Shown piece by piece: positions 10,571-51,795 of a stretch of DNA of 64,000 bases. The stretch lies in contig JAPLYG010000016.1 of assembly GCA_026395685.1 (NCBI GenBank), forward strand, positions 65,035 to 129,034, given 5' to 3'. Under the pieces are notes generated by a model that was given only the letters and a program-made list of their open reading frames with translations, ran no database searches and was not told where the DNA came from. This DNA comes from Candidatus Parcubacteria bacterium (GTDB taxonomy: Bacteria > Patescibacteriota > Patescibacteriia > CAIXNZ01). A program made the translations under genes and the position numbers. How positions within the stretch are numbered: the stretch's first letter is position 1; every line of letters starts with the position of its first letter.

Positions 10571-10574
10571 ACCG

Positions 10575-10705
10575 GTAAATAACCAATCATCAATAATCAA
10601 CATCCAAACAAATCATAAATTCTAATTTTAAATATCAAAACAATTTAGAATTTAATTATTGTATATTAGTTATTGTTTGATGATTGCGTTATTGATTATT
10701 GGATA
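10575..10705. repeat. Family-A intergenic palindromic element (copy A1)
   Basis: Reads aaccaatcatcaataatcaacatccaaacaaatcataaattctaatttt ... caatttagaatttaatt ... attgtttgatgattgcgttattgattattgg. Its left arm would encode the first 11 codons of the track ORF 9185-10603. Confidence 0.65.
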
Positions 10706-11884
10706 TTATAACTGCAATAATTTATAAATATAGTTTTTAATATCCCATTCCTTTGCTCTCATTTTAGCATTTTCCGACATTTGTGTTAACTTGCTAATAT
10801 TTTGCAGGCTAAAATTAAGCTTATTCAAAAGTCCGATTTTACTGCCAGCCTCAAAAAGATAGCCATTTACACCTTCCTGCACCAGCTCCGATATGCCACC
10901 GATCGCTGAAGCAATGACCGGGGTGCTGAAATTAAAACTGTCATATATCACGCTGGGGGAATTTTCATAGCATAAAGACGGTACAATGGCATAATGTATT
11001 TTCTTAAAAACCTGCTGGCTGAGCAAATTGGCCGGAATATAGCCTAAAAACTCTACCCATTTTTTTCCTTGATATTCAGTATTTAACCTGTCAGCAAGCT
11101 TGCCATTACCCACCACATAGAGCTTTACCTCCTTATTATTTGCAAATTCCTGAAAAACATCCAACAGCAACAAAATGCCCTTATGCTCTTCCAATTGGCC
11201 CAAAAAAAGATAATTAACGGTCGAGTCAGCAATATTTTTTTTATAATTTTCATTTTCTAAGATAACAGGGTTTGGCAAAACAACTTTGCGTATTTTTTTA
11301 AAAAATCCAGCCTGATCATAAAAGTCGAGCAACCACCTTGAAGGTGAAATTATCACTGAAGCATTATTAAATAAGTATCTGGTAATAAGGGAGTATAAAT
11401 AGCAAGATAAAGGCTGCGTTTCCTGACCTTTGATTATTAAGCCGGAAGGATTTACCAATTGCACGTCATGCAAGGTATGAAAACATCTAGTTTTTGACTT
11501 CTTAATCGCCAGCAGAGTCAAATAGCCCAATCCTTTAAGATTATGGCTCAGGACTATATCTGGATTTTCCAGCTGTATGATTTTTTTAATCTGAAAATAT
11601 GAATGCAGATTAAAAGTGTCAATCAGATGCCAGATCAGACGCTTCCACCTTGGCTGGCTGCCAATATCGACAAAGGAAAAAATATTTTTCGGATAAAAAC
11701 GATAAATTTTTATATCATCCATTTCCGTTAAAAAAAACTTTGTTTTTTCCGGCTTGGCGGAAATAGTAATGACAAAAATATCATGGCCATCCTTTTTCAA
11801 TTCCTTGACCAGATTGGAAAAAACAACCTCAGCTCCCCCGCGGCGATAAGGTTTGTACAAACTGTTTATTAGGGCAATCTTCAT
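10706..11884 (-). CDS. Glycosyltransferase family 4
   Basis: The N-terminus is MKIALINSLYKPYRRGGAEVV. The C-terminus has an E-x7-E-like block (CYENSPSVIYDSFNFSTPVIASAIGGISELV). Confidence 0.8.
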   Translation of the reverse strand: MKIALINSLYKPYRRGGAEVVFSNLVKELKKDGHDIFVITISAKPEKTKFFLTEMDDIKIYRFYPKNIFSFVDIGSQPRWKRLIWHLIDTFNLHSYFQIKKIIQLENPDIVLSHNLKGLGYLTLLAIKKSKTRCFHTLHDVQLVNPSGLIIKGQETQPLSCYLYSLITRYLFNNASVIISPSRWLLDFYDQAGFFKKIRKVVLPNPVILENENYKKNIADSTVNYLFLGQLEEHKGILLLLDVFQEFANNKEVKLYVVGNGKLADRLNTEYQGKKWVEFLGYIPANLLSQQVFKKIHYAIVPSLCYENSPSVIYDSFNFSTPVIASAIGGISELVQEGVNGYLFEAGSKIGLLNKLNFSLQNISKLTQMSENAKMRAKEWDIKNYIYKLLQL

Positions 11885-13047
11885 AAATTTGGGGGGACTT
11901 TAACCAATTCTTCGTAAACTTTATTTAATTTATTAATCAAAACATCCTGGCTATACATTTTCTCGGCCCGTTCTTTGGCAGCCTGACCGAATTGAGACAA
12001 TAAGGCATCGTCCGTAAAAATTTTTCTGACTTTTATCACCAAGTCATGCTGGTCTAAAACTTCAAAAGTAAAGCCGCTGACTCTGTTTTCAAAAACACTG
12101 CGCACTCCAGGCAAATTAGCCGCCAGCACCGGCTTGGCACAAGCCATCGCTTCGATTAAAACAATGCCAAACGCTTCTGATTTATCAATTGACGGCAAAA
12201 TAATGGCATCTGCCAGATTATAAAAATTAACCAGCTCGCGGTCATGAGCAAAACCTGCAAATAAAATTTTATCGATCAAGCCCAAATCTAAAACATGCTT
12301 TTGATATTCATTTTTCAGATCACCTTCGCCGACAATAATAATTTTCAAATTATCCAGGCCGATTGCCTTATAAGAATCAATCAGGAAATGAATGCCTTTA
12401 AAATAATGGGCCTGGTCCAGCGCGCCGACAAAAAGCAGGACTTTCTCATTGGCTTTAATATCAAACTTTTTCATTAAAATTTGATCGTTTATCGCCGGTT
12501 TAAATATATTCAAATTCACGCTCGGTGGGATTTCAACAAATTTATCCGAACGCTGAATGATCAGCTCCTTGATATTGGAATTTTTGGCATAATCAAAGCT
12601 GGAAACAATCACCTTATCAGCGCTGGCAATTATCTTTGGCATAAAATGCTTGGTATGAAAAGAAAAAATACTTTTTTTCCAGCCGCTGCCGACCACATCC
12701 ATCTGATAATTTATGACTAATTTTAATTTCTTGCCTAAATATTTTTTTAACAGCCAGACAACCTCTGCCCCGCCAAAAAACGGATAATGGAGATTAACCA
12801 GATCAAAGTCTCTCAACTCCCAAAATAGCTGGGGCAAAAATCCGCTATTACCAAAGCTAAATAAAGGTTTGAGCCGCCTGACTTCAAATTCGGCAAATTT
12901 TACTTCATTATCCTTAGAATCAACTAATGGCGTGAAAACAGTGACCTGATGACCTAATTTTGACAAACCCAAAGCATAGTCATAAGCCACATTGCTGATG
13001 CCTCCTTTATATGGTTTAAACCTGCACACGACTTGAGCTATCTTCAT
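11881..13047 (-). CDS. Glycosyltransferase family 4
   Basis: The N-terminus is MKIAQVVCRFKPYKGGISNVAY. The C-terminus has SEAFGIVLIEAMACAKPVLAANLPGVRSVF. There is a 4-bp overlap with the upstream GT4. Confidence 0.8.
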   Translation of the reverse strand: MKIAQVVCRFKPYKGGISNVAYDYALGLSKLGHQVTVFTPLVDSKDNEVKFAEFEVRRLKPLFSFGNSGFLPQLFWELRDFDLVNLHYPFFGGAEVVWLLKKYLGKKLKLVINYQMDVVGSGWKKSIFSFHTKHFMPKIIASADKVIVSSFDYAKNSNIKELIIQRSDKFVEIPPSVNLNIFKPAINDQILMKKFDIKANEKVLLFVGALDQAHYFKGIHFLIDSYKAIGLDNLKIIIVGEGDLKNEYQKHVLDLGLIDKILFAGFAHDRELVNFYNLADAIILPSIDKSEAFGIVLIEAMACAKPVLAANLPGVRSVFENRVSGFTFEVLDQHDLVIKVRKIFTDDALLSQFGQAAKERAEKMYSQDVLINKLNKVYEELVKVPPNL

Positions 13048-13270
13048 AGGATACTAATTTACTAATAAGCTACTAATATACTAATTTTTTAAGTTATTCG
13101 TAGATTAGAAGCCAATTCGTAGCATTAGTAGTATTACCAAGTTATCAAATCTTTTATAATCTGCCAATAGGTTATGTTACTAATTTACTAATTAAGTAAT
13201 TTGAGTTCGGAAATTCGCAGATTAGTAGCCAATTCGTAGCATTAGTAGCCTTACCAAATTATCAAAAGCT
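13048..13270. repeat. Tandemly duplicated ~125-bp intergenic unit rich in TACTAAT heptamers
   Basis: Unit 1 is at 13048-13165 and unit 2 at 13175-13270, about 85% identical. Each has a tactaatttactaat block and a tcg(t/c)agattag(a/t)agccaattcgtagcattagtag block. Similar heptamer clusters occur at 6415-6460 and 6915-6955. Confidence 0.6.
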
Positions 13271-14297
13271 TAACTAAAAACCAGTATGCGTTAAATATAG
13301 GGTTAGCAAGATATTTTAAGATCCAATTATCAATTTCCTGATTTTCAATTTTTCCGGTAAATAACTCGACAAGTTCCCTATCCCTTCTTACCCTTATTAT
13401 TCTTTTTTCCCTTCTTTCCTTTCTAATTTTCCCCCAATTATCAATACTTAAAAACCAGGCGTATACTTTCAGTTTCTCTTGCCAAAAGCCAGATTTTAAT
13501 GAAAACAGGAATAAGCCAGCTTCCATGACAACTAAAGCCGGCAAAATCAAAAGCAAAGTCGCCAATTTATAATTTTCAAAAAGGCAGATGAAACGATTGC
13601 GCTCCATGAAATAATATTTTTTTATACTTTTGGAAAACTGATATTTATGATAAATAACTGCCACGGGTACCAGCAAAATGTCATAGCCTGCCATTCGCAG
13701 GCGCCAGCCCAGATCCAAATCCTCATGATACATAAAAAAGTCAGGATCGAATAATCCGACTTTCTCCAAAGTTGATTTACGATACAAGACTGCGGCGCCG
13801 CTGGCATAGGCTATTTTTCTGGGCTGTAAATTGTTATCAAACTGCTGATAGCCGCCGGCTGAAAATCCAAAGCCCAGATAATGGATAGCATTGCCCAGTG
13901 AATTAACCTTATCCTTTTCCGGATAGAGCATAAGCCTGGGCTGGACAGCGCCGATTTGATGATCAGCTTCAATAACAGCCAGCAATTTTTTTAAAAAATC
14001 AGGTTCACATATCGTATCCTGATTTAATAAAAAAAGATATTCAAAATTTTCAGACATTGCCTGTTTAATTCCGATATTATTACCTAGAGCAAAACCGGTA
14101 TTTTCCTGATTTTTAATAATGGCAATGTCAGGATAATTACTTTGCACAAAATTAAGAGAATCATCAGTTGAGGCATTATCCACAAAAAAAATCTTAAAAT
14201 TTTCCGGGGGATAATCCAGCTTCGCCAAACTAGCCAAACAATCAGGCAAATATACCAGGCCATTATAATTGACAATAATGATTGCGACCTTATTCAT
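13251..14297 (-). CDS. Glycosyltransferase family 2
   Basis: The opening VAIIIVNYNGLVYLPDCLASL...FFVDNASTDDS is the GT2 DxD-containing N-terminal domain. TM helices lie near the C-terminus. Confidence 0.8.
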   Translation of the reverse strand: MNKVAIIIVNYNGLVYLPDCLASLAKLDYPPENFKIFFVDNASTDDSLNFVQSNYPDIAIIKNQENTGFALGNNIGIKQAMSENFEYLFLLNQDTICEPDFLKKLLAVIEADHQIGAVQPRLMLYPEKDKVNSLGNAIHYLGFGFSAGGYQQFDNNLQPRKIAYASGAAVLYRKSTLEKVGLFDPDFFMYHEDLDLGWRLRMAGYDILLVPVAVIYHKYQFSKSIKKYYFMERNRFICLFENYKLATLLLILPALVVMEAGLFLFSLKSGFWQEKLKVYAWFLSIDNWGKIRKERREKRIIRVRRDRELVELFTGKIENQEIDNWILKYLANPIFNAYWFLVKLLIIW

Positions 14298-14345
14298 AGG
14301 CTAAGCTGAAAATCTCCCCCGTTTTTTGGGAGAGACTTTGAGTTA

Positions 14346-15371
14346 TTAATCTTGTATTGATTGAACATTATTCCAGTCGATCATCACACTGTGAGCTTTG
14401 CCATAAAGCACTGTTTCTTCCAGACCCTGCTCCAGAGTAACAATCGGAAACCACTGGAGTTTATCTTTTGCTAAACTAATATCCGGCATCCCCAAGCGTG
14501 ACATGAAAAGCAGTGGTTCGGCATATTGTATTTCCGATTTGGAATTGGTCATTTGAATAATCATCTTGGCAATATCCGAAATCTTATGCTGCTGAGGACT
14601 GCCGATATTAAGCGGACCAAATTCAGTAGAAGCCATCATTTTCAAAACCGCGTCAATCACATCTGAAATATAGCATAAAGTAGTGGTAAAATTTTGATCG
14701 CCGTAAATCATCAGGGGCTTATTATCCAAAGCAGATACAATAAAATCAGGAATCATGTGTCCGACAAAAAGAGGCATGCGCGGACCGTAAGAAGTAAAAA
14801 TTCTTAAAATCTTGCTATCAATATTAAAATACTGGCGATAAGTATAAACTAATGTTTCGGCAAAACGCTTACCCTCATCATAGCAGGCTCTGGGAGTTAA
14901 GGGTGAAGAAGGAAAAAACATATTTTCTTTCATGTCCGGAGTATCATTGACAGCTGAGCCGTAGACGACAGAAGAAGAAAAATGTAAAATTTTTGCCTTA
15001 TATTTGACGGCCAAATCAAGGGCGCGGATTACCCCGACAGAATTTGTCCAGGCGGTCAGAATCGTATTTTTGGTAAAATCTTTAGGATCGGTAGGACAAG
15101 CCAGATTGTAAATTTCCTGAATTCCTCTCACCCCGAGTTGGAACCTGTCTAAATCACTGAAATTTTCCAGGCTGACCAGATTATTCACATCTTCATTTAA
15201 GAAAATAAAATTTTCATTCTGCAAAAGATGCTCAATGTTTTCCCTGCGTCCGGAAATAAAATTATCAACACAGATAACATTGCTGTCTGCGACCAGCCGG
15301 TCGCAGAGATGAGAGCCCACAAATCCGGCTCCGCCCAAAACTAAAATATTTTTTTTATCTAAAACCCCCAT
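14346..15371 (-). CDS. NAD-dependent epimerase/dehydratase (UDP-glucuronate decarboxylase-like, SDR family)
   Basis: The opening ILVLGGAGFVGSHLCDRLVADSNVICVDNFISG is a Rossmann motif with a UXS-like N-terminus. The YxxxK region is present. Confidence 0.7.
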   Translation of the reverse strand: MGVLDKKNILVLGGAGFVGSHLCDRLVADSNVICVDNFISGRRENIEHLLQNENFIFLNEDVNNLVSLENFSDLDRFQLGVRGIQEIYNLACPTDPKDFTKNTILTAWTNSVGVIRALDLAVKYKAKILHFSSSVVYGSAVNDTPDMKENMFFPSSPLTPRACYDEGKRFAETLVYTYRQYFNIDSKILRIFTSYGPRMPLFVGHMIPDFIVSALDNKPLMIYGDQNFTTTLCYISDVIDAVLKMMASTEFGPLNIGSPQQHKISDIAKMIIQMTNSKSEIQYAEPLLFMSRLGMPDISLAKDKLQWFPIVTLEQGLEETVLYGKAHSVMIDWNNVQSIQD

Positions 15372-15487: not shown

Positions 15488-15874
15488 TTATACCCGAAAA
15501 GTCCAATATTTATTTGCCCCGAAATTCCAAAATAAACCGATAACTGTAGCTGCGGCTTTTACCCACAAATCAGGCCAGCCAAAATAGTTAACGCCGATGA
15601 ATATCAAACCATTATTCAGAATAAAATAAACCAAATTTACCAACGCAAACTTAAAATATTGAGTTTTTACCTGTTTATCATTATTTTTAAAAGTCCATTT
15701 CTTATTAAGAAAAAAACTAGCAGTCATGGCCAGAAAAACAGAAATCAAGTTGGCAAATAAATAGTATACGCCCAGCGCCCGGGTAAGAAAATAATAAACC
15801 ACAAAATCAAAAGCAGTATTGAATACTCCGACCAGACAAAATTTTAGAAACTGTTTAGCCATGATTTTTCGCAA
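15488..15874 (-). CDS. GtrA-family membrane protein
   Basis: 128 aa, 4 TM. Shows FLKFCLVGVFNTAFDFVVYYFLT and KKWTFKN, as in GtrA-like flippase components. Confidence 0.7.
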   Translation of the reverse strand: MRKIMAKQFLKFCLVGVFNTAFDFVVYYFLTRALGVYYLFANLISVFLAMTASFFLNKKWTFKNNDKQVKTQYFKFALVNLVYFILNNGLIFIGVNYFGWPDLWVKAAATVIGLFWNFGANKYWTFRV

Positions 15875-15879
15875 AAGGC

Positions 15880-17496
15880 TTATTTTAAAGACATTGTAGA
15901 TTCAATTGTCGGCGCGTTAAGCTGCTCGGCAAAAGGATCAAAATTATAAACGGTTTCTAAGGGCTCTCCGACGCTATAGCTGATAAAAAATGATTCCGAA
16001 ATATCATTTACCTGAGTTTGCCAATATGGACCGTAATACCTGGTTAAAAAGTTCACATCTTTGATCCAGCGCAGTTTTGCGCCAATGGCGACGACATAGA
16101 CGCGCGGATCTGACTGGATTTTCAGCAGGCTGCCGGGACGATAAGTAACGAGGCCGGCCAGGGGCAATGAAGCCAAAACACTATCATCAACTATTTTAAT
16201 GTCTTTAAAAGTGCCAAACCAGTTGACATAGACTTTTTCATCAGGGAAAACATAGCGTTTGCCGTTATCCGCCAGATAATAAACAGTCGAACTAGCTCCT
16301 TTTATTAATTGATTGCTGGCTGATAAACTCTTAATCACATTAAAAATTTTTAGCGGATCAATCATGCCTTTGCCGATTTTTCCTTTCATGGTTAAATTCT
16401 GGCTGTCGATATTCCTGGTATTTTTCAAAATAAAATCACGGATTTCAATATTGGTAAGTTCGGGATAAGTTGACTTGATCAGGGCAGCAATGCCGGAAAC
16501 AACCGGTGCAGCCAAAGAAGTGCCTGAATAATCTCCTCCATAAAACTCTGACAAGCCCGGAACGGCGGGATTAACTACCTGCAAACCATAAAAATTGGAT
16601 CCGGGCGCAACAATGTCCAGACAAGACGAACCGTAATTAGAATAATAAGCTAATTTATCATCTTCATCAGTTGCACCGACTCCAATTACCATATTGGCGC
16701 CTGTATTTCCATCGTAACAAACCGGATACCTTTTTTCCAGATCTAAATTTATAGGATAAGCAATTTGAACCACATCATGCTGCTTTTCTCTGATTTCCCA
16801 AATGAACTCCTCATTACCGGCGGAAGCAACGATAATCAGTCCGGCATTATAAGCGCGATTAATGGCATTGGCAAAATCACCATCATACGGGATACTGACA
16901 AAACTCATATTTAAAATATCGGCTTTTTTATCAATTGCGTAATTAATAGCCTCAACCACATCGGGAATCGTGCCAGTGCCATACTCGTCCAATACCCGCA
17001 AGGGCATGATTTTTGTACTTTGCCAGGCAATACCGGCAATACCAATAGTATTATTGCCAATTGCTGCGGCGACACCGGCAACCAGGGTGCCATGGTAAAT
17101 TGCCTCTTTTTCACAAGAATTAGTTTCCAGGCAATCCAGAGCATAATCAGGAGCCGGATTATTATCATCGGCAATAAAATCCCAGCCATTAATATCATCA
17201 ATGTAGCCGTTCTTATCATTATCAATGCCGTCACCATCGATTTCAGCCTGATTAACCCAGACATTATCATGTAAATCAGGATGGGAAATATCAATACCCG
17301 AATCAATTACCGCAATAATAGTGTTTTTATGCTTTAAATTCTGTACCCAGATATCCGGCATATTCAAACGGCTCAGATACCATTGCCTGTAATAAAAAGG
17401 GTCATTGGGAGTAAGGCCCTGGGCAAAACAAAAATTAGCCAAAATAAATTGGGCTACTAAAATGACCATAATTACTCGACTTAACCTCATAATCAA
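15880..17496 (-). CDS. Secreted subtilisin-like serine protease (S8) with Ca-binding Asp-rich repeats and a C-terminal unnamed ~110-aa domain
   Basis: Has a signal peptide. The catalytic triad contexts are VIDSGIDISHPDL (Asp), HGTLVAGVAAA (His) and GTSLAAPVVSGIAAL (Ser). A DGDGIDNDKNGYIDDINGWD repeat is present. The C-terminal domain is shared with two surface proteins (see findings). Confidence 0.85.
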   Translation of the reverse strand: MIMRLSRVIMVILVAQFILANFCFAQGLTPNDPFYYRQWYLSRLNMPDIWVQNLKHKNTIIAVIDSGIDISHPDLHDNVWVNQAEIDGDGIDNDKNGYIDDINGWDFIADDNNPAPDYALDCLETNSCEKEAIYHGTLVAGVAAAIGNNTIGIAGIAWQSTKIMPLRVLDEYGTGTIPDVVEAINYAIDKKADILNMSFVSIPYDGDFANAINRAYNAGLIIVASAGNEEFIWEIREKQHDVVQIAYPINLDLEKRYPVCYDGNTGANMVIGVGATDEDDKLAYYSNYGSSCLDIVAPGSNFYGLQVVNPAVPGLSEFYGGDYSGTSLAAPVVSGIAALIKSTYPELTNIEIRDFILKNTRNIDSQNLTMKGKIGKGMIDPLKIFNVIKSLSASNQLIKGASSTVYYLADNGKRYVFPDEKVYVNWFGTFKDIKIVDDSVLASLPLAGLVTYRPGSLLKIQSDPRVYVVAIGAKLRWIKDVNFLTRYYGPYWQTQVNDISESFFISYSVGEPLETVYNFDPFAEQLNAPTIESTMSLK

Positions 17497-18017
17497 TCCG
17501 CTAAAACATTAATTTTAAAAACCGAATGATCCCCTAACTCATAGTTTCGCCATGAACAATATCTAAAAAGAGAAATATCAGATACTAAACCATGACTAAT
17601 TGGGTTATCATGAATATATTTTAATTTTTCTTCAAATTTCTTATGGGAATAAATATTAAAATCGAAAAATCGATGTTTCCATAAAGCTCCGCTACGTTGC
17701 AAATATTTATTGATCTTTCTAGCAGTAACCCCTTTTATTTTTTTGCCTATATAAGAGATACCAAACTCGTTAAGCGAAGATTCCGGGGTATCACCGAATT
17801 TATTCGGTGATCCGTAGGCAAACACTTGACCAATTAATAAATGAACATGATCGGGTACGATAACGAATCCATAAATATCAAAACTTAATTCCGTTCTCAA
17901 TCTATCTAATTCCTCTAAAAATATATCACAGCACTTATCATCTTTAAAAAACGGCACGTTATTTGCAGTTTTAAAAGTGACAAAGTGTATATGACCGGGG
18001 TCATCAAACTTTTCCAT
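17493..18017 (-). CDS. REP-associated tyrosine transposase-like (IS200/IS605 TnpA-like HuH) protein carrying an in-frame REP hairpin insertion
   Basis: The HuH motif is VPDHVHLLI and the catalytic Tyr context is YIHDNPISHGLV. The segment AYGSPNKFGDTPESSLNEFGISY is encoded by a copy of the REP palindrome (ggtatcaccgaatttattcggtgatccg) at about 17775-17835. Confidence 0.7.
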   Translation of the reverse strand: MEKFDDPGHIHFVTFKTANNVPFFKDDKCCDIFLEELDRLRTELSFDIYGFVIVPDHVHLLIGQVFAYGSPNKFGDTPESSLNEFGISYIGKKIKGVTARKINKYLQRSGALWKHRFFDFNIYSHKKFEEKLKYIHDNPISHGLVSDISLFRYCSWRNYELGDHSVFKINVLAD

Positions 18018-18044
18018 TTAAAAATAACATTATTTTTCTCATAA

Positions 18045-18330
18045 GCCTCATCGGGTATCACCGAATTTATTCGGTGATCCGTGCTCGCCCATACAACCCC
18101 GAATGAATTCAGGGTTACCCTGCGGAAGTTGTTCCAATCAAACGCGCAGTCTCGGGGTATCACCGAATTTATTCGGTGATCAGTCCGCGCCCATACAACC
18201 CCGAATGAATTCGGGGTTACCCTGTACAAATTGTTCAGGCAGAACTTTCGGATTGGGGGTATCACCGAATTTATTCGGTGATACGTCCGCGCCCATACAA
18301 CCCCGAATGAATTCGGGGTTACCCCGTGAA
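18045..18330. repeat. REP/BIME-like array of three ~100-bp units of two alternating palindromes
   Basis: Each unit has ggtatcaccgaatttattcggtgat, then gcgcccatacaa, then ccccgaatgaattcggggttaccc. It lies immediately adjacent to the RAYT-like gene. ORFs 17915-18265(-) and 18103-18381(+) are artefacts of this array. Confidence 0.8.
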
Positions 18331-18358
18331 TCCGTACGTGTCCATATAACTAAACTTA

Positions 18359-19717
18359 CTAAAGTCCTTTATCAACATTAATCGACGTGGCTGCATTTTG
18401 TACTGTTATAGGCGAAAAGTCGCTGGTACTGCTAATAGGTAAGCCCACTGTATAATTCACGAAAAACGGATCAGGCACATCTTCCACCAGACTGCCCCAA
18501 TTTGCGCCATAAAGGGCCACTGCAATGGCTTCCGTGGTAACCCAGCGCAAAGTACCCTTTGGGCCGACAGCGTAAACCTTGGGGTCAGTAGTGATTTTGA
18601 CCAATTTAACTCCGGGCTTATAAGTAACATTCCCGCCAATAGTAATAGTACCCAAATCCAAATCTGCGATAGTTACTATATTCAAAAAGTCAGGATACCA
18701 GGTTTTATAAGTATTTAAATTCGGAAAAACATAACGCTTACCGTCATTGCCAAAATAATAAAGCGCCGCGCCAGATGCCTTAATCAAATCCCCTGCTTTA
18801 TAGGCATTTACCGGTGTTGTGGGCGGAACTACAGGAGGAACTGCGATAGCGACATTAACAGTAATTTCTTCGCTTTGGCCTGGGTTACTACCCTGGTCAG
18901 AAGAAGTAACTTTAATCTTATGCTCGCCAGTGGCAATATTTTGCCAGACATATTGCCAGGTATAAGTCGTGTCATCAAAAATTGAAATTACATTTTTCTG
19001 CCCGTCAATATAAATAAAACGGTCTTTAATAGAAGTAGCGCCCTGATCACGAATCATGCCTTTAATCACAAACGAGTCGCTCTCAATTGTCTGGCCAGCC
19101 TGTAAATTTGTAAAGTTTACTTTTGGTCCCAGACTATCAACCGTAGTCAGCCCCACTACCTGCACATTATCATTAACAATATTTGCATTAGTCGGGCCAT
19201 TATTGCCTGAATCCATAAAAATACCCATATCACCCAAATCAAAACTTCCATTAGCATTAGTATCAATTAGTTTGGGAATCTGCATTTGGACAGAGCCTGT
19301 TTTAGTTATATAGGAAGAAATTTCCGCACTGACAAAATATCTCTGGCTGTCAGCAATATTTTCGCTCAAATTATTCAGATACCAGTTTTGCAGAGTGCTA
19401 AAGTAAATTAAATTCCCAATTTTACGGTCAATGCCCATGCCCTGAAAACCGACAGGTCCGTCATCAGCCCACAATGTCAGGTAATCAAGCTGGTACGCGT
19501 CAGTTAAAGTTCCCAAATTCTGCAGGCTTAGAGCTTTTAAAGTATCAGGCCTGGCTGTAACCAAAGTAAAATCAAAAACCAGGTTATCAAATGTACCCCG
19601 AAAAAAAGTATCATAAGGAACTTCAGTCTTAACTATTGATTGCGTGTCAAAAGCCAGGCTAAAATTTACGCTAAATAATACGCCCAAAATCACCAGAAAA
19701 AAAGTAAATTTTTTCAT
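18359..19717 (-). CDS. Secreted surface protein with Ig-like central region and C-terminal unnamed ~110-aa domain
   Basis: The likely start is MKKFTFFLVILGVLFSVNFSLA, a signal peptide. The C-terminal ~120 aa (ASGAALYYFGNDGKRYVFPNLNTYKTWYPDF...TDPKVYAVGPKGTLRWV...) are homologous to the S8 protease C-terminus and to the N-terminus of the 1198-aa protein. Confidence 0.55.
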   Translation of the reverse strand: MKKFTFFLVILGVLFSVNFSLAFDTQSIVKTEVPYDTFFRGTFDNLVFDFTLVTARPDTLKALSLQNLGTLTDAYQLDYLTLWADDGPVGFQGMGIDRKIGNLIYFSTLQNWYLNNLSENIADSQRYFVSAEISSYITKTGSVQMQIPKLIDTNANGSFDLGDMGIFMDSGNNGPTNANIVNDNVQVVGLTTVDSLGPKVNFTNLQAGQTIESDSFVIKGMIRDQGATSIKDRFIYIDGQKNVISIFDDTTYTWQYVWQNIATGEHKIKVTSSDQGSNPGQSEEITVNVAIAVPPVVPPTTPVNAYKAGDLIKASGAALYYFGNDGKRYVFPNLNTYKTWYPDFLNIVTIADLDLGTITIGGNVTYKPGVKLVKITTDPKVYAVGPKGTLRWVTTEAIAVALYGANWGSLVEDVPDPFFVNYTVGLPISSTSDFSPITVQNAATSINVDKGL

Positions 19718-19904
19718 AAAAAACAAGGTTAATTGAATTAATATATCCTGTCTATATTTTACCAAAATTAACCTGTTTCAACAACTAATCCAAAACCTTT
19801 ATTCGGTCATTACCAACCCCGGGGGCTTGGGGGATGAGAACGAAGCTCTTTTGTTCGCTTCAAACTCACACGTCCACTACTTCGATTTATTCAAATTTTT
19901 CTGA

Positions 19905-19990
19905 TTAAATCGCTTTCCCTTCACCCGGGGTCTGGGGGCCGAACTAAGCGCCGTTATCAATGCTACGAACTTTCCATTTGCACTAGCGCA
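19905..19990 (+). ncRNA. Candidate structured small RNA / terminator-containing element (family C, copy 2; partial copy at 19797-19850)
   Basis: The stem ctgggggcc...ggcccccag encloses conserved gaactaagcg / tacgaac / cat.tgcactagcgcattga blocks, followed by a T-rich tract. A perfect AT-rich hairpin ggtacttttt-gctgtc-aaaaagtacc lies at 19995-20020. It is homologous to 30867-30990. Confidence 0.4.
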
Positions 19991-20199
19991 TTGAGGCCCC
20001 CAGCAGTTTTGGCGGTACTTTTTGCTGTCAAAAAGTACCAAATATTCAGGAGATACAATTATTTTGAATTATAAATATTTTTTGCTTTGCACAAATCAAT
20101 TTTACCATATAATTTATTGTTTGAAGTTATATTTTAAGTTGTATTATTAACAATTAAGTTTTTACTTCAAACTCACCTGGCTCATTACAGTGGCGTTTT

Positions 20200-20246
20200 T
20201 TCAAATAACACAAAACCTCCCCTCCCGCAAAAGCGGAAGAGGAGGC
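20200..20246 (-). terminator. Intrinsic terminator downstream of the 1198-aa gene
   Basis: On the minus strand: cctcctcttccgc-tttt-gcgggaggggagg, followed by ttttgtgttatttg. Confidence 0.6.
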
Positions 20247-20288
20247 TTGGACAGTTTTAAGCTGCTGACAAACTTTGAAGGAGTACTA

Positions 20289-23200
20289 TTATGGCTTGAT
20301 CAAAGCTCCACCATATTGAGTGCCTCGGAAGATAATTGTACCTCTTTGGTAATCAGCAGGTGTTTGTTCAATGACACGCCATTTGATATTTCCGTCAGCG
20401 CCATCAGATAATGACATTTGGACTGAATCACCAGCAGTTGTAAGATCAGCACCAGTAGCTAATGAAGTATCCATGTAAACATAAACTGTCTTGGATAGGC
20501 CTGCCGGAATATTATAACTTCCAGCAACAATGGAGCCGAAATCCAATACAACGTCATCAGTATTTGCTGCTAAAGTAGTATCGGTACCTAGAGTTATGCT
20601 TCCATCTTTAAATGTAACAAGTCCAGCAGCACCCGCACCAGCCATATCCAAATGAACGATTACGCAACCTTCATTAGCAACAGCGCAAGCGCCATTATTA
20701 TTACCCTTAGTGAATACCAAGTCATCATTAGCACCAGCAGTAATAGTAAAGCTGCCGATTAGAGTACTTGCACCTGGGACTAAGTTTCCAGAAGGAGTAG
20801 CTGAAGTAGCGACAACCGGGAAATTCTTATAAGTGTAAGCATTTTGGATAGAAGTATTGTTCAATTTGCTAATACCGGTTACGCCAGTATCAGTTAGACC
20901 AAGTAATTTCTTGTTTGAAGAAACACCCAAGACAATGAAATCATTAGTCATAATTTGTTCAGCTGCATTCCAGGTATCAGCAGTGATAAGACCTAATCTT
21001 ACAGCGGCATCATTAATAGCGCCGGCTGCATAAGAGTTAAGGTCAGCACTGATTGTCATTACAGCACTGCTATTGACCGGAACATACATATCCAATTGGC
21101 CGTCAAGAAAAGTTACTGAGCTGACAACGCCAGTTGTTGATATGTCGCCAAGCTTAGTTTCGGTAGTACCGCTGGCATTCTTATAAGAAACTTTAACCTT
21201 AGCGAGATTTATTTCATTAGCAGCTGTTTGTAGTTCGATCTTAGCGCCTTTTACTGTAAATGCTTCGTCAACAGCAGATACTTTGTATTTTGACAATACA
21301 ACATCGCTATTGCCTAAAGTTGCCAAGGAAGCTAATGGAGTGCCGCTATCAACAGCAACCACTACATTACCACTGGTCTTTATGGTCTGCATTACAGTAG
21401 GAGTTCCGGCTAGTCCGTCAAAGTTGAAATTAGTAGCTGACAAAGTAGTTAATAAACTGCCAGTGCTATTTTCAACTTCCAAATCTTCTGAAGGTTTGAT
21501 ACTAACAGCAGTATATTTAGGACCGACTATTGTATTACGATAAGCTAATCTGACTGTTAATTTCTTTTGAGCGCCTGCTGGAATAGCATAAGCTAAATTA
21601 GTGAAATCAGCTCTATAATATTCACCAACCTGCCAAACGCCATCGCCACCTCCAATTTCTATCAGAGTTAAATTGACAGGACCCTTAACTAAAGTAGAGC
21701 CATCATATAAACTAGCTGTTTCAACAAGCAATTTAGCATCTTCATTACCAGTATAAATAACACCAACTCCGCCGCCATCAGTGTCAAAATCAGCATTATC
21801 ATCACCATAAACTCTAGCCTGTAAGCGATTCAATTTTAAGGAATCAGCAATACCGGCAGAAAGGTTAATGCCTAATGCATCACCAGCTTGAGTGCCTCTG
21901 ACAAAAGCAGCTGAGGTTGGAATACCAGCCAAAGTAACTGTTAAGCCAGAAGTTGTAACTGTCTGACTAACACCAGCAACTGAAGATGGGACAATATTGG
22001 TATTTAAGACATATTCAGAAGAATCATTGTCATAAACAAAGCTTGCAGTGCTTAAATCAAAGGTAGCAGCAAGAACAGTGCTATTAGGGGTCAAAGAGTC
22101 AAAATCAGCCTTGATTGCTAAATGTCTGGTTGTGCCAGCAGTTAAATCATAGGTGTCAGATGACCTTAACCAGCAGCCTGCATTCAAGTGAGCAGCAGTT
22201 GTACAAGCCGTTGCACCGCCTTGAGTTGTCTTAAAGCCGCCTAAATCAGCAGCATAAATCAAAGTTGTACCGCTGTCCAAGTCAACTAATTTGACATTCT
22301 TAATGTATGTTTCCAAATCATCATTAGCAGCGCCGGTTGTCTGTACTTTAAGATCTGTCTTTCTGACTGTTGCATTTCTTTCAGAAGAAACATTTACTTT
22401 CAAGATAGCATTGCCGTTTGTGTTTGCTGAGAAAGTAGTAGCTGCCGGGCCTGCGTTTCCTAAAGTAATTTGACCGCCTTGCATAGTAACAGTCTGGTCA
22501 CCAGCTGCATCATATGAAGGGTCAATAATGATATTAGCACCAACGCCATATAGAGCATCCTGGATATTTAAATCAGTTCTTTGGTCAACATAGAATTGAA
22601 CAGTATCGTTGGTTCTGCCGCCTGTAATATCAGCAAAAACAGAGAAATTCTTAACCTGGCCTTTGGCAACTGTAAATGGAGCGCCCAAGACAAAAATTGC
22701 CTTATCGCTAGACATTGCAGCAACTGAAGCCAATTCATAAGAACCCTGCTTTAATTTCAAGTTGGCAATATTGGTGTTTGTCAATTTGCCGCCTTGTCTT
22801 AAAGTAATAGCATAAACAGTTGCATCATTAAGACCAGCGGTAATAGAGAATTTAGCTAATTCTGCACCAGCTGTTCCCAAAGTAACATTCCAGTTAGCTG
22901 AGGTACCTCTGATAGTAACATCAGAAGCTGCAGCATTACCAATAGTCATCAAATTGCCCATTACACCGGCAACAGCATTGCCGTTGATTGACTGAATAGA
23001 CAAAGCATTTTGATCGGTTGCTCTAGCAGCATTATCAGTGACATCAACTTTTGCAGTCAAAGTGACAGAGCCACTGATTGCTAAATTGATGTTGGTGAAA
23101 GTAACTGTATTGGTATCAGAAGAAATGCTTCTGCCAGATGTTAATCTGGTATTGCCATTGTATAGGTAAACAGAGACATAGTCGCTTGCGTTACCTAAAC

Positions 23201-23885
23201 CAGTTCTCTTTAAGATAACTTCATTTAAAGTTCCGCTACCAGAAAGAGTGAATTTCAAGACTGGAACGCCAGTAGCTTTTTGAGCCAAGGTTGCAGCTGC
23301 TGGATTATCAGATGCCAATGAAGCATTGAAAGCAGCCTGGTTGCCGCCGGATAAGCCTTTATCAACATTGATAGAGACAGCGGTAGAAGTAGCAGTTGCA
23401 GGTACAAAATCAGCACATGCATTGATCGGAGCGCCGATTGTGTAATTTACAAAAAATGCGTCTGAAATATCATCAACCTTTGTTCCCCAAGTTGCGCCAT
23501 ATAAGCATTCAGCAATGGCAGCTGTGGTTACCCACCTTAATGTGCCGTTAGCTGCAATAGCGTAGACTTTAGGATCAGTGGTAATTTTACCTAATTTTAC
23601 GCCCGGTCTCATGGTTACATTACCGCCAATTGGAATAGCAGCCAGTTCAGCGTCGGTAATTGTTTTAACAGTTGAAAAATCAGGATACCAGGTCTTGTAT
23701 GTTTTCTCATTTGGGAAAACATATCTTTTTCCGTCAGCTGCGTAGTAATAAACAGCAGCGCCGGAAGCCTTGATCAAGTCGCCAGAAGTAACTGCTGCTT
23801 GAGCGACTGGAACAAATGCTGCTAAGCCGACAGCCCAAAAAATTGTAAGGACTACGACACTAACAGTAAAAATCCTTTTAATCAT
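20289..23885 (-). CDS. Giant secreted surface protein (1198 aa): signal peptide, the unnamed ~110-aa domain, then long Thr/Ser/Gly/Asn-rich beta-rich repeat region
   Basis: The signal peptide is MIKRIFTVSVVVLTIFWAVGLAAFVPVAQA. Then comes ASGAAVYYYAADGKRYVFPNEKTYKTWYPDF...TDPKVYAIAANGTLRWV. The remainder is low-complexity and Ig/beta-sandwich-like. Confidence 0.6.
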   Translation of the reverse strand: MIKRIFTVSVVVLTIFWAVGLAAFVPVAQAAVTSGDLIKASGAAVYYYAADGKRYVFPNEKTYKTWYPDFSTVKTITDAELAAIPIGGNVTMRPGVKLGKITTDPKVYAIAANGTLRWVTTAAIAECLYGATWGTKVDDISDAFFVNYTIGAPINACADFVPATATSTAVSINVDKGLSGGNQAAFNASLASDNPAAATLAQKATGVPVLKFTLSGSGTLNEVILKRTGLGNASDYVSVYLYNGNTRLTSGRSISSDTNTVTFTNINLAISGSVTLTAKVDVTDNAARATDQNALSIQSINGNAVAGVMGNLMTIGNAAASDVTIRGTSANWNVTLGTAGAELAKFSITAGLNDATVYAITLRQGGKLTNTNIANLKLKQGSYELASVAAMSSDKAIFVLGAPFTVAKGQVKNFSVFADITGGRTNDTVQFYVDQRTDLNIQDALYGVGANIIIDPSYDAAGDQTVTMQGGQITLGNAGPAATTFSANTNGNAILKVNVSSERNATVRKTDLKVQTTGAANDDLETYIKNVKLVDLDSGTTLIYAADLGGFKTTQGGATACTTAAHLNAGCWLRSSDTYDLTAGTTRHLAIKADFDSLTPNSTVLAATFDLSTASFVYDNDSSEYVLNTNIVPSSVAGVSQTVTTSGLTVTLAGIPTSAAFVRGTQAGDALGINLSAGIADSLKLNRLQARVYGDDNADFDTDGGGVGVIYTGNEDAKLLVETASLYDGSTLVKGPVNLTLIEIGGGDGVWQVGEYYRADFTNLAYAIPAGAQKKLTVRLAYRNTIVGPKYTAVSIKPSEDLEVENSTGSLLTTLSATNFNFDGLAGTPTVMQTIKTSGNVVVAVDSGTPLASLATLGNSDVVLSKYKVSAVDEAFTVKGAKIELQTAANEINLAKVKVSYKNASGTTETKLGDISTTGVVSSVTFLDGQLDMYVPVNSSAVMTISADLNSYAAGAINDAAVRLGLITADTWNAAEQIMTNDFIVLGVSSNKKLLGLTDTGVTGISKLNNTSIQNAYTYKNFPVVATSATPSGNLVPGASTLIGSFTITAGANDDLVFTKGNNNGACAVANEGCVIVHLDMAGAGAAGLVTFKDGSITLGTDTTLAANTDDVVLDFGSIVAGSYNIPAGLSKTVYVYMDTSLATGADLTTAGDSVQMSLSDGADGNIKWRVIEQTPADYQRGTIIFRGTQYGGALIKP

Positions 23886-24372
23886 ATTAATTTTATCCTT
23901 TCTTAACTCCTGAACAAATTTACGGATAAGAATATAAATTTTACCAAGCCCGAAGGCTCGACGGGGAAAATCCCCTGCCCATAAACTTTCAAAAGCCGAC
24001 CGGATAAATCCGACGTCGACCTTTACTTTTGAATGTTTAGGAACTTATATCCTTATTTAACCCGCGAAATCCATTCAAGAGGGTTAGTTAGCTACCCGAA
24101 ACCCGGATTTAATATCCAGGAGGGTAATTCCTATATACCCCCAAGGCATTTAGGAATCTGCACCAAAGGTGCAAACCCTGACTTTTCACTAAACTTAGTC
24201 AAAAGGCAAGGCCTGAACCGCACAAATAAATTTTAAATATCAAATTTTAAATTTAAATTGTAGGTGGATTGTGTTTAATTTTAAATTTTTAATTTTAAAT
24301 TTTAATTTTTGGAGTTTGTATTTTAATTTACAATAAATCATTTTCCAATATTTAAAACTTATAATTTAAAAT

Positions 24373-24756
24373 TTATAATTTTTCAAGATTCTTTTTATTC
24401 TCAATGGTAATTACGATTTTTGAAAATATCAGGATCAATTCATGAATTTCCTGCATTAATGGCTTGCCTTCAGTCTCTAACCCAGAGTTTGCCATAATAA
24501 CCAATCTTAACCAATATTTCGTTTCTTTTGCTTCTTTTTTACAGATACAAATTTTATTTTTAAAATCTTTCTCAGAACTTGCGCCATTTGCTTCATGATA
24601 ATTCGCTCCCACTTGTTCCTGACCTTACTATTTGTCTAATTATGGGTAAATTTACAGCGGTTTTGGGAATTTTTTTAGCAAATTTTATAATATTTTCGGC
24701 AAATACAATTGTTCTTTCTTCCAAATCAAATTTAAATTCTTTTTCCGACATTTATA
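24373..24756 (-). pseudogene. Four-helix-bundle protein gene (23S rRNA IVS / Avd-like family) disrupted by a frameshift
   Basis: The upstream minus-strand reading frame runs MSEKEFKFDLEERTIVFAENIIKFAKKIPKTAVNLPIIRQIVRSGTSGSELS and stops at about 24601. The family continues in another frame as GANYHEANGASSEKDFKNKICICKKEAKETKYWLRLVIMANSGLETE (ORF 24373-24612). The two halves together match the E-G-x-G-R-x-S-x-K-E-F...E-x-x-Y-W-L pattern of IVS-family proteins. Confidence 0.5.
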
Positions 24757-24836
24757 ATTTAAAATTTATAATTTAAAATTTTCAACTCATTATATTTACT
24801 TGCTATTTGGGATTTGTCTTTTGGTACTTCAATCAA

Positions 24837-26168
24837 TTATTTCTTTTCGGGAACAGTATTTACATTTGCCGGTTCTGGAATAGTTGCAGGCGCAGGTGTT
24901 TCAGCCGCTTGTGGCTTTGGCGCTTCCAGATATTCTTTATTTGCCTCAATAACGTCTTCAGCTAATTCAATGATATCATTGGCATCTTTTAATTTGGAGT
25001 ATGACCATAAAACTTCTTTAGTTATCAAATAGCCCTTGGATTCAAGTAATAATTTCTGAGCATCTGCTAATTTCACCTTAATTTCAGCTGGTGATGGTAA
25101 AACCACTTCAGGCGCCTTTACTTCAATTGGCGTTACATCAGTAGGCGGATTTAAATTAATATTTTCGATAGTTTCAACTAATGCTTCAACAGGTGTTTCT
25201 GCTGGCTTAACTTCGGTTGTAGCAGCAGGGGTTTCAGTCCCTGTCTCAATCGCAGTTGCCGCAGCTGCAGCGGCTGCTTTTTCTGCTTCAGCCTTGGCTT
25301 TGGCTTCTTCCGCTGCCTTAGCTTTAGCCAAATCATCAGCTATTTTTTTATTGACAATAATCTTATCTAAATCTTCATTATCTCTTCCTAAGCGATAATT
25401 TAAATCAGCCATTTTCTTTTCCAGACTTTGAATCACGGTATCCAGGGTCACTTCCTTACTGCCTGCCTTATATTCATTAATAATCATATCCAAAGCTTTT
25501 TCTGCCATGGCCTTAGAGGAGGTAATCGCTTCAAGAGTAGCTTCGGTCTTTTTCAAATCAGGATTTTTATCTTTTTGTTGGGTTAAAATCTCAACATAAT
25601 TTTTAGTCTTTTCATCCACTAATTTGGCAACTTTGACAGCGACATTACTGTCTGTTTTTTCCAGTTTAGCCAGACTGGTTTTCATATTATTGATGCTTTC
25701 CTGAAATTTCTGCAAAGAAACCTGGACATTTTCCTTTTGCTTGTCATCATTGACCGGCTGATCAGTGATTTTCTGCAGTTCCTCAAGCCTGCGTTCAGCA
25801 AAGGCTATTTCTAAATTAGCCTTTTTTTCATCATTATTGGCCAGATTGATTTTCATTCTTTCAGAAGTGATTTTAATAGGATACAAAAAATCGCCGGGCA
25901 AACTATTTTTTGTTGCGCCGACGGTCATAACATAACTGCCTAAAACTATGCCAAAAACTAATATAAAACCAGCTACCGGCTTATATAAAGAAACTGTTAA
26001 TCGTTTAAAAAACAAGGAGGACCAATTGATTTTATTCTGAACAGTGTCACTGGTCTGCGCCTTGATTTGAGACAGCAAAATATCCCGATTGAGCTGTTTC
26101 CAGGCTGCATCAGGTTTAACTTCATTTTTCAGATTATTCAATTGTTTTAAGAAGTCACGCTTGCGCAT
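24837..26168 (-). CDS. Putative anti-sigma factor (single-TM, DUF5667-like periplasmic coiled-coil region; Ala/Glu/Lys/Pro-rich C-terminus)
   Basis: It lies immediately downstream of the ECF sigma gene and is co-oriented with it. It has a cytoplasmic N-terminus, one TM helix (LYKPVAGFILVFGIVLGSYVMTV) and then LANNDEKKANLEIAFAERRLEELQ repeats. Confidence 0.5.
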   Translation of the reverse strand: MRKRDFLKQLNNLKNEVKPDAAWKQLNRDILLSQIKAQTSDTVQNKINWSSLFFKRLTVSLYKPVAGFILVFGIVLGSYVMTVGATKNSLPGDFLYPIKITSERMKINLANNDEKKANLEIAFAERRLEELQKITDQPVNDDKQKENVQVSLQKFQESINNMKTSLAKLEKTDSNVAVKVAKLVDEKTKNYVEILTQQKDKNPDLKKTEATLEAITSSKAMAEKALDMIINEYKAGSKEVTLDTVIQSLEKKMADLNYRLGRDNEDLDKIIVNKKIADDLAKAKAAEEAKAKAEAEKAAAAAAATAIETGTETPAATTEVKPAETPVEALVETIENINLNPPTDVTPIEVKAPEVVLPSPAEIKVKLADAQKLLLESKGYLITKEVLWSYSKLKDANDIIELAEDVIEANKEYLEAPKPQAAETPAPATIPEPANVNTVPEKK

Positions 26169-26326: not shown

Positions 26327-26893
26327 TTATTTTTCGCCCATTAGCTCCCGCAAGGCATTTGTTGCCCGATAAAGAATGACTCTGACAGCTCCATTTTTCT
26401 TTTCCACTATCTCAGCGATCTCTCCAATTGATAATCCGTCAACATATCGTAAAATAATAATTTCCCGATAATCATCTTTTAAACCCTGGAGCTTATCCTG
26501 TATTTTTTCCAGCTGAATCTTACTATCAAGTTCATCCTGGCCTTGAGTAATCATTATATTATCAACCCGCAGATTTTCTCCCCCGCTGTCCAGAGCATCC
26601 AAAGAAACTCCTTTATGCGCTGCTTTACGATAATAATCAATTACCAAGTTACGGGCTACTTTATATAAGTAAGCATTTAGGTTGGAAATCTCTTTGCCGC
26701 TGATAATATATTCCCAGGTCTTCAAAAACACCTCCGAGGTTAAATCTTGGGCTTCTTCCTTACTATTTATCTTAAAAAAAACAAAGCGATAAATCTTATC
26801 CACATAGAGGTCGTAAATCTTACTGTAGGCCTCGGGATCTTTATTTCTCGCTTTAAATAGTAAATATTTTTCTGTAATTATATTAGCTGTCAT
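26327..26893 (-). CDS. RNA polymerase sigma-70 factor, ECF subfamily
   Basis: Region 2 reads EAQDLTSEVFLKTWEYI...YLYKVARNLVIDYYR. Region 4 has the HTH LSIGEIAEIVEKKNGAVRVILYRATNALRE. Confidence 0.85.
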   Translation of the reverse strand: MTANIITEKYLLFKARNKDPEAYSKIYDLYVDKIYRFVFFKINSKEEAQDLTSEVFLKTWEYIISGKEISNLNAYLYKVARNLVIDYYRKAAHKGVSLDALDSGGENLRVDNIMITQGQDELDSKIQLEKIQDKLQGLKDDYREIIILRYVDGLSIGEIAEIVEKKNGAVRVILYRATNALRELMGEK

Positions 26894-41703: not shown

Positions 41704-42086
41704 GGGGATGATCGGACTCGATAGATCGATCTTTATCTAAGGCTGCAAGCCGAGCTGCTATCATGCTCGATAAACTGTTAGCCACTTTATAAGTGCAAAC
41801 AAATTTTTAAGCGGAGTTAAAGCAGCTTTTGCTTTTAACTTTGCTCCTGTTGCCGCTTAATCGCCGCAACCATCTGGACCTTTAACGCCTGATAAAAGGC
41901 TCCGGGTGTCAAAACATCAGGCTCGCCAAGTAAGGAGCGCCTTTGCCAGCTTGGCCAAAAAATTAAGGCATGATATAAGAATTTTGTCGGGATTAACATC
42001 TTATATTTAAATTTAACCCCGAACAAGCTTGTAGACGCCTGGCCGAAGACTTTCTAGACGCGGGTTCAATTCCCGCCATCTCCACA
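41704..42086 (+). ncRNA. ssrA: tmRNA (SsrA)
   Basis: The 5' end is ggggatgatcggactcgat. The 3' tRNA-like domain has gacgcgggttcaattcccgccatctcc plus a discriminator a; CCA is not encoded. The internal tag ORF ...GVKAAFAFNFAPVAA ends in gcc-gct-taa (AA-stop). It is adjacent to smpB. Confidence 0.8.
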
Positions 42087-42206
42087 TAAATTTTTACTTC
42101 GTAAAAATTTGGGTACTTAGTAGTTTGTACTTTGTATTTTGGGAAGAAGTAAAAATTTATCCTACACTACAAAATACACATACTCACACAAAAATAAAAA
42201 ATATGT

Positions 42207-51682: not shown

Positions 51683-51795
51683 CCCAGGACTCCCCTTGCC
51701 AAGGTAATAAAATATTGCTATAATATTCTCACAAGGTCTAAAAACCTTATTTTTAATTTATAAATATTCCTAAGTTTTAACTTTTGAATTAATTT

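Follow-up and report, generated by a model that had tools for sequence, protein, structure and literature searches.

In Clostridioides difficile, SlpA, the maturation protease Cwp84, which processes SlpA, and some 27 further proteins have in common CWB2 repeats that bind the polymer PSII, and the locus for PSII synthesis lies directly beside the slpA/cwp84 cluster (PMC4973711). Here we describe a domain of 142–145 residues, carried by a secreted subtilase (S8) and by two further secreted proteins of 468 and 1198 residues in a Candidatus Parcubacteria bacterium, whose fold is probably distantly related to the EccB repeat and to PlyCB and which is probably used as the modules of the SLH and CWB2 systems are. 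The three genes lie in a 64,000-nucleotide stretch of contig JAPLYG010000016.1 (metagenome-assembled genome GCA_026395685.1, positions 65,035 to 129,034 of the forward strand), which we refer to throughout as the window and to which all coordinates apply.

The two structural relatives come from quite different settings. In EccB the repeats pack together to build the periplasmic assembly of the ESX machine; those who solved the EccB1 structure described a fold relation between its repeat R1 and PlyCB, and this led them to the untested suggestion that peptidoglycan is bound by EccB1 (PMC4769845). PlyCB, a subunit of the streptococcal phage endolysin PlyC, forms an octameric ring (PMC4769845) and is a demonstrated binder of the wall polysaccharide polyrhamnose (bioRxiv 10.1101/2021.03.19.436156).

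The functional likeness is to CWB2 (PF04122) and to SLH (PF00395, Bacillus and related), which are likewise tandem-repeat modules placed terminally on an S-layer protein, a protease and many enzymes, with clustered genes that adjoin a wall-polymer synthesis locus (PMC4973711). The new domain differs from both in its unrelated sequence, its different fold and its two repeats where theirs number three, and its binding is proposed from circumstance.

Three copies of one domain

Each copy is encoded within one of three co-oriented open reading frames (ORFs) on the minus strand, and all three products have signal-peptide-like N-termini:

20289..23885, minus strand: secreted protein of 1198 residues, MCX6740477.1, annotated as 'hypothetical' (ORF, Pfam scan, composition, synteny)
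23352..23786, minus strand: domain copy 1, residues 34–178 of the 1198-residue protein (tblastn; HMM E 5e-69; AlphaFold2 model)
18359..19765, minus strand: secreted Ig-like (Big_7) protein of 468 residues, domain C-terminal (ORF, Pfam, synteny)
18362..18796, minus strand: domain copy 2, the C-terminal 145 residues of the 468-residue (452-residue) protein (tblastn; HMM E 2e-65)
15880..17496, minus strand: secreted subtilase (Peptidase_S8, Pfam E 1e-50) of 538 residues, with its DSG, HGT and GTSLA triad motifs intact
15883..16308, minus strand: domain copy 3, the most divergent, the C-terminal 142 residues of the S8 protease (tblastn; HMM E 2e-53)

A tblastn search of the window with each copy finds exactly these three places. 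The copies of the 468- and 1198-residue proteins are 68% identical (E 7e-65), and that of the S8 protease is 42% identical to the copy in the 1198-residue protein (E 2e-37) and 37% identical to that in the 468-residue protein (E 6e-30). Homology among the three, which the first-pass annotation had claimed by eye from the letters, is far beyond chance. A hidden Markov model (HMM) of 44 domain sequences, run on the six-frame translation, recovers the same copies with E values of 1e-53 to 2e-69 and detects no fourth in the window, the next match having an E value of 0.4. The homologous stretch extends through ...FFVNYTxGxPI...DFxP...SINVDKGL and is thus longer than the ~110 residues at first proposed, for which the DNA ranges given missed a little of the C-terminal end of every copy. 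Copy 1 begins four residues past the predicted signal-peptide cleavage site (AQA/AV), and copy 3 retains every residue that is invariant in the family. The NCBI annotation gives the 468-residue gene as a 452-residue form ('Ig-like domain-containing protein') with an ATG at 19717 (MKKFTFF...), which is likely to be the true start.

A large family without a name

No family in Pfam-A (2025 copy) or NCBIfam (2026) matches the domain when the three proteins and the 44 domain sequences are scanned at E≤10; AstE_AspA_hybrid, NdhS and the other hits returned at that threshold were rejected as noise. Models for SLH, CWB2, LysM, SH3b, PG_binding and choline-binding modules in these two collections fail to match it even at this level, and sequence searches of the PDB do not name it either. 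Two PDB profile matches, to designed propellers ('VYAInpnGkLkW', a beta-hairpin) and to the antibody motif 'AVYYCA', were set aside as short-motif artefacts. The initial impression that this is no named wall-binding module therefore holds at the sequence level, neither profile collection having placed it in a known family. Full-text literature searches on DUF5667 and on S-layers or wall binding in Patescibacteria turned up neither an account of the domain nor experimental data on its binding to a wall component.

The family is nevertheless large. Searched with a profile, 1.84 billion representatives of clusters at 50% identity yielded 5,398 matches at E≤1e-3, of which 2,397 reach E≤1e-30, and a scan of species-representative genomes located the domain in at least 589 places. 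Among the best 80 of these places the lineage, where named, is nearly always Patescibacteria (Parcubacteria, Falkowbacteria, Uhrbacteria, Minisyncoccota), and Veblenbacteria appear among the named sources in a separate list of relatives. Many of the records for the best 80 places are titled 'uncultured Gammaproteobacteria' and a few bear the names of other taxa; on an unchecked reading we take these for placeholder or mis-binned labels. We conclude that the domain is a new, large sequence family that has no family name and merits a Pfam or InterPro entry.

Two repeats of an EccB-like unit

An AlphaFold2 model of the full domain, computed from the 44-sequence alignment, has a predicted local distance difference test score (pLDDT) of 96.7 and a predicted template-modelling score (pTM) of 0.87, and the same pattern of secondary structure occurs twice in it. 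Because the two halves, residues 1–62 and 60–125, align in full register (20–28% identity, hhalign P 0.005), the domain is described as a tandem duplication of an alpha/beta unit of ~62 residues, followed by a tail of ~20 residues. It is rich in aromatic residues (17–22 of 145), and the invariant positions are Y13, R21, F24, W33, K67, Y75, W100, Y115 and G118.

The structure search that had been recommended for the domain gives a consistent answer, with the repeats of EccB closest and PlyCB weaker. When the whole domain is compared with the PDB by Foldseek, EccB1, EccB3 and EccB5 occupy ranks 1–11 (E 2.4e-3, probability 0.98), with a low global TM-score because the two units differ in orientation. 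A model of the single unit (pLDDT 85) has EccB1, EccB3 and EccB5 as its top twelve matches, except for the endolysin LysIME-EF1 at rank 9; the best EccB matches have TM-scores of 0.66–0.71 and a root-mean-square deviation (rmsd) of 2.2–2.4 Å over 57–63 columns, with 21–24% identity. Lower down, at rank 24, stands PlyCB (4f88_P), with an E value of 2.5, a TM-score of 0.54 and an rmsd of 2.8 Å over 50 columns. A search of BFVD adds small uncharacterised actinophage proteins (E 1e-5, TM-score 0.73) and weak matches in the C-terminal regions of CHAP, lysozyme and amidase proteins from phages.

Sequence comparison points in the same direction, at moderate significance. A profile of the stacked repeats, searched against the PDB, ranks EccB1 second to fifth with E values of about 0.5, and the EccB1 match aligns the motif sMYYIDPQGVRYGVPNAETAKSL with AVYYYAADGKRYVFPNEKTYKTW. 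Against a profile of 120 EccB sequences, hhalign gives the repeat profile a probability of 72% (P 3.5e-5), with alignments on R4, R1 and R3.

Remote homology between the repeat unit and that of EccB is therefore probable. The unit of EccB R1–R4 (PF05108; PDB 4kk7, 3x3m, 7nps) has a similar length of ~55–62 residues and the same four-stranded sheet and two helices, the motif YYxxxxGxRYxxPNxxT is common to both, and EccB too is extracytoplasmic and found in bacteria with a Gram-positive-type wall. The relationship does not, however, extend to membership of the EccB family, because the architectures differ, PF05108 has no match and no type VII secretion system (T7SS) genes lie nearby. EccB is part of a secretion machine, with an N-terminal transmembrane helix and four repeats around a central sheet, whereas the Patescibacteria domain has two repeats and a tail, no core and no membrane helix, follows a cleavable signal peptide and recurs at the ends of diverse proteins as a mobile module. 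PF05108 finds no match among the three proteins and 44 domain sequences at E≤10 (hmmscan), and no FtsK/SpoIIIE, EccD, WXG100 or other T7SS gene is found among the window ORFs scanned. In NCBIfam the S8 catalytic domain scores best against the type VII secretion mycosin model TIGR03921, with 146 bits where the cut-off is 279; we rejected this as an echo of a T7SS, the score being far below the cut-off and no other T7SS gene being present in the window, and the match probably reflects generic subtilase similarity.

The comparison with PlyCB (PDB 4f88) is looser. Both are small alpha/beta folds, and the binding of a wall polysaccharide by PlyCB is the function that we propose for the domain, but the structural similarity is weak, PlyCB is a single unit in an octameric ring and there is no detectable relation in sequence. 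A further parallel comes from phages. No relatives were found in GenBank phages by tblastn, and IMG/VR gave two contigs only. One of them, IMGVR_UViG_3300014208_000414 (locus L082, 5357–6813), has large and small terminase genes and encodes a protein made of a signal peptide and the domain; the start of this gene overlaps the stop of a membrane-anchored lysozyme-like gene, whose SLT_3 match lies below the Pfam threshold (23.5 bits, cut-off 27). The pair recalls two-part lysins and may be such a lysin from a phage of Patescibacteria.

Terminal placement and fusion partners

A scan with the HMM for domain architecture and gene neighbourhood, also recommended at the outset, shows a Patescibacteria-wide family of terminal domains with clustered genes. 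Among the 144 best representatives the domain is terminal in 141, following directly after the signal peptide in 114, lying at the extreme C-terminus in 15 and occurring at both ends in 12. Many proteins of ~180 residues consist of a signal peptide and the domain alone. The fusion partners are numerous, unrelated to one another and all extracytoplasmic, with 41 Pfam families represented at E≤0.001. They include Ig-like domains (Big_7, fn3, Big_1, TIG), peptidases (C25, trypsin, S8), glycoside hydrolases (GH10, GH26, GH114), enzymes of peptidoglycan (M23 endopeptidase, S11 DD-carboxypeptidase), a staphylococcal-type SNase nuclease, beta-helix proteins, a chagasin-type inhibitor and cupredoxin. 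Such promiscuous fusion is the signature of a mobile anchoring module.

In the ~1200-residue carrier, the domain and the rest of the protein also differ in how fast they change. Between genomes the domain is 60–77% identical, whereas the remainder of the ~1200-residue orthologues is about 29% identical. A conserved anchor combined with a fast-evolving exposed part is typical of S-layer-type proteins, and the contrast is the pattern expected if a conserved anchor is joined to a variable exposed part.

The same partners could be read differently, with the domain facing outward as an adhesin or carbohydrate-binding module that binds a polysaccharide of the host cell or of the environment and so tethers the episymbiont, or its hydrolases, to the wall of its partner. 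Patescibacteria are widely regarded as episymbionts; GH10, GH26, GH114, the nuclease, the proteases and M23 would suit foraging or attack, and the fold relatives include wall-binding parts of phage lysins and small actinophage proteins. Enzymes held on the producer's own surface have, however, a known precedent in SLH-anchored glycosidases. The most conserved carrier is the ~1200-residue structural protein, encoded in a locus for the organism's own envelope glycan, and the 60–77% conservation of the domain among lineages whose hosts probably differ speaks for a conserved ligand on the cell itself. We consider an outward-facing role unlikely.

Genomic context

Eighty related loci (designated L001 and so on) were used for the comparison of gene order. 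The neighbours of the three carrier genes that take part in it, as assigned by family scan, are as follows, with synteny as additional evidence:

26327..26893, minus strand: sigma factor of the extracytoplasmic-function (ECF) type, at the head of the conserved order
24837..26168, minus strand: single-pass membrane protein with DUF5667, an anti-sigma-like partner
15488..15874, minus strand: GtrA-family membrane protein, immediately downstream of the S8 gene
14346–15371, minus strand: NAD-dependent sugar epimerase/dehydratase of the short-chain dehydrogenase/reductase (SDR) type
13251–14297, minus strand: family 2 glycosyltransferase (GT2)
11881–13047, minus strand: family 4 glycosyltransferase (GT4)
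10706–11884, minus strand: family 4 glycosyltransferase (GT4)

The order in the window is thus ECF sigma factor, DUF5667 membrane protein, ~1200-residue protein with N-terminal domain, Ig-like protein with C-terminal domain, S8 protease, GtrA, SDR, GT2 and GT4. It is complete, from sigma factor through GT4, in locus L017, runs up to the SDR gene in L004, where that locus ends, and from the 468-like Ig-like gene to GT4 in L027. The trio of sigma factor, DUF5667 protein and ~1200-residue protein recurs in 26 of the 80 loci, the first two always directly preceding the large gene, and this order suggests that the sigma factor places the ~1200-residue surface protein under envelope-stress control. 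A crude k-mer search upstream of the ~1200-residue genes gave nothing convincing as a shared ECF-type promoter. Orthologues of the 468-residue protein stand at the same position in L001, L004, L017 and L027, and S8 is followed by GtrA in these four and in L033.

The 1198-residue protein is a candidate for a major surface or S-layer-like protein. It is acidic (pI 4.8), rich in Ala, Thr, Gly and Val, and without any domain in a Pfam-A scan. Its gene is followed by a strong terminator-like element:

20213..20248, minus strand: intrinsic-terminator-like hairpin just downstream of the 1198-residue gene, with a 16 bp stem, 9 GC pairs and a T-rich tail

Upstream of the gene lies an AT-rich non-coding gap of 951 nt (23886–24836), unusually long and with many promoter-like hexamer pairs, which might serve as a long leader or contain several promoters, as in S-layer genes elsewhere.

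The glycan-synthesis genes of the conserved order span 10706..15371 on the minus strand, stand in the same order in L017 and L027, and are candidate makers of the polymer that the domain would bind. They belong to a larger set: the window encodes four GT4 enzymes, one GT2, one GT9, Wzy (Wzy_C), Wzz, a flippase-like protein (Polysacc_synt_C), an RmlC-like dTDP-sugar isomerase and an FdtA-like protein. Most of the window is therefore an envelope-glycan island with a full polysaccharide set of the Wzx/Wzy type.

S8 genes are present in 9 of the 80 loci and are followed by a GtrA or SDR gene in 8 of the 9. Six of these nine syntenic proteases carry the domain, and one of the other three has FG-GAP repeats in its place. 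The position of the protease bears on another suggestion made at first, offered as speculative, that the domain is a recognition or sorting tag by which S8 recognises its neighbours and processes or attaches them in the manner of a sortase or exosortase. Its synteny with domain genes in the nine loci fits such a role, and the processing of SlpA by Cwp84 makes an in-locus relation of protease and substrate plausible (PMC4973711). The sorting signals of the sortase (LPXTG) and exosortase (PEP-CTERM) systems likewise recur on numerous surface proteins within a genome and go together with a dedicated protease-like enzyme. They are, however, short C-terminal motifs with a transmembrane helix, removed upon covalent attachment, whereas the domain is large (145 residues), folded and globular, without a membrane helix and mostly N-terminal. 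It occurs on the protease itself and alone in ~180-residue proteins, it is absent from three of the syntenic S8 proteins, and 71 of the 80 loci have domain genes but no S8. The parallel with sortases and exosortases thus breaks down, and a tag function is highly improbable.

Clustering of the domain genes raises a third alternative, a protein–protein assembly module through which the domains of neighbouring products bind each other, homotypically or heterotypically, and build a surface complex or lattice. At least two domain genes occur in 48 of the 80 loci, and in 44 two such genes are co-oriented and less than 2 kb apart. Both structural relatives assemble, the repeats of EccB in the ESX periplasmic assembly (PDB 7nps and 7np7 are among the matches) and PlyCB in its octameric ring (PMC4769845). 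Within a genome, the copies of the ~1200-residue and 468-type proteins also resemble each other as much as, or more than, they do their orthologues: in L001 the two are 78% identical to each other, against 64–69% for the orthologues. The evidence for homogenisation within genomes is mixed and not decisive, since it extends partly to the N-terminal copy of the ~1200-residue protein and the C-terminal copy of the 468-type protein and not to the S8 copy. On the other side, the many unrelated enzyme fusions and the abundant stand-alone forms of ~180 residues suit a common anchor better, and the presence of two copies on some proteins and the occurrence of the same domain type in several separate loci of one genome likewise weigh against a defined complex. 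A second recurrent cluster type is a triplet of ~180-residue, ~470-residue (Ig-like) and ~270-residue (cupredoxin) proteins, all with the domain at the N-terminus. We give assembly as the primary role a low probability, noting that assembly and wall binding could coexist.

Several other features of the window may be recorded. Between the S8 and 468-residue genes lies a gene for a REP-associated tyrosine transposase (RAYT)-like protein (Y1_Tnp/IS200-like, 17493–18017, minus strand; REP, repetitive extragenic palindrome), beside an array of three 102-nt units (18053–18338), each with two palindromes, GTATCACCGAATTTATTCGGTGAT and AACCCCGAATGAATTCGGGGTT. Homologous genes occupy equivalent intergenic positions in L004, and gene and array together look like a REP/RAYT system in a Parcubacterium. 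A membrane protein with a FecR domain is encoded at 9185–10603. Two more large secreted proteins lack the domain: one of 1569 residues (45944–50653, minus strand; Big_5, pI 4.05), whose C-terminal ~70 residues contain a duplicated motif, F[KR]xMFGHxP...LAW[NS]T, that has no Pfam match and possibly acts as another kind of terminal anchor or sorting module, and one of 1265 residues (60156–63953, minus strand), rich in Thr, Gly, Ser and Asn and with a G8 domain. The window also contains a tmRNA (41704–42087) with an SmpB gene nearby and a tRNA-Asp (51795–51871).

Proposed function

On balance we favour, with slightly better than even confidence, a role for the domain as a non-covalent anchor to the cell's own wall or wall polysaccharide. 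The domain is extracytoplasmic, terminal and common to many unrelated secreted proteins; it is fused to peptidoglycan enzymes (M23, S11) and linked to GtrA, SDR, GT2 and GT4 genes. Because of the terminal position, the unrelated exported partners, the EccB/PlyCB-type fold and the wall-glycan cluster, the lineage-specific envelope anchoring that was at first suggested as one of two options is indirectly supported, whereas recognition by the protease is not.

After export by the Sec pathway, the domain would bind the cell's own wall, either peptidoglycan or, more likely, a secondary polysaccharide attached to it and made by the products of the adjacent glycosyltransferase genes, and would thereby hold otherwise unrelated proteins at the cell surface. 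In the window, a large S-layer-like protein, its Ig-like accessory and the S8 protease would be placed on the same wall polymer, where the anchored protease might process or trim its neighbours. The logic would be that of SLH in Bacillus and of CWB2 in Clostridioides difficile.

Several considerations weigh against this proposal. We infer wall binding and the ligand from context and fold. The one proven wall binder among the fold relatives, PlyCB, is only weakly similar, the sequence link to EccB is no more than moderately significant, and the EccB repeats, the closest relatives in fold, pack together into a protein assembly and have a ligand that is only proposed. Synteny with glycan genes could simply reflect the general character of an envelope island, and the case for an S-layer role of the 1198-residue protein comes wholly from its composition, gene position and terminator. 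The relatives, finally, are mostly from metagenome bins, and spread outside Patescibacteria has been judged from the best-scoring matches only.

A broader and rather doubtful idea, which we rate somewhat below the adhesin and assembly alternatives, is that the EccB-repeat-like unit is an ancient glycan-binding superfamily, so far unrecognised, that takes in EccB, the main anchor of surface proteins in Patescibacteria and the parts of phage lysins that bind the wall. In these episymbionts its ligand might be a wall polysaccharide of the host cell and not of the bacterium itself, and the module would then fasten proteases, glycosidases, nucleases and hydrolases of peptidoglycan to the partner.

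Implications for Patescibacteria and for EccB

Patescibacteria (CPR, the Candidate Phyla Radiation) make up a large share of bacterial diversity, and to our knowledge almost nothing is known of how their cell surface is built or how they make contact with their hosts. The domain marks thousands of secreted proteins, so that a surface proteome could be listed from sequence alone. The window provides a candidate S-layer locus, in which a sigma factor, an anti-sigma-like protein, a ~1200-residue protein, an accessory protein, a protease and glycan genes stand together. As a small module that appears to fold well (pLDDT 97 in the model), the domain might be used to probe the wall polymer in these mostly uncultured organisms. 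Its structural link to the EccB repeats bears, in addition, on the question of whether these periplasmic repeats of mycobacterial type VII secretion bind the wall; if their relatives in Patescibacteria bind wall glycans, that proposal for EccB gains weight.

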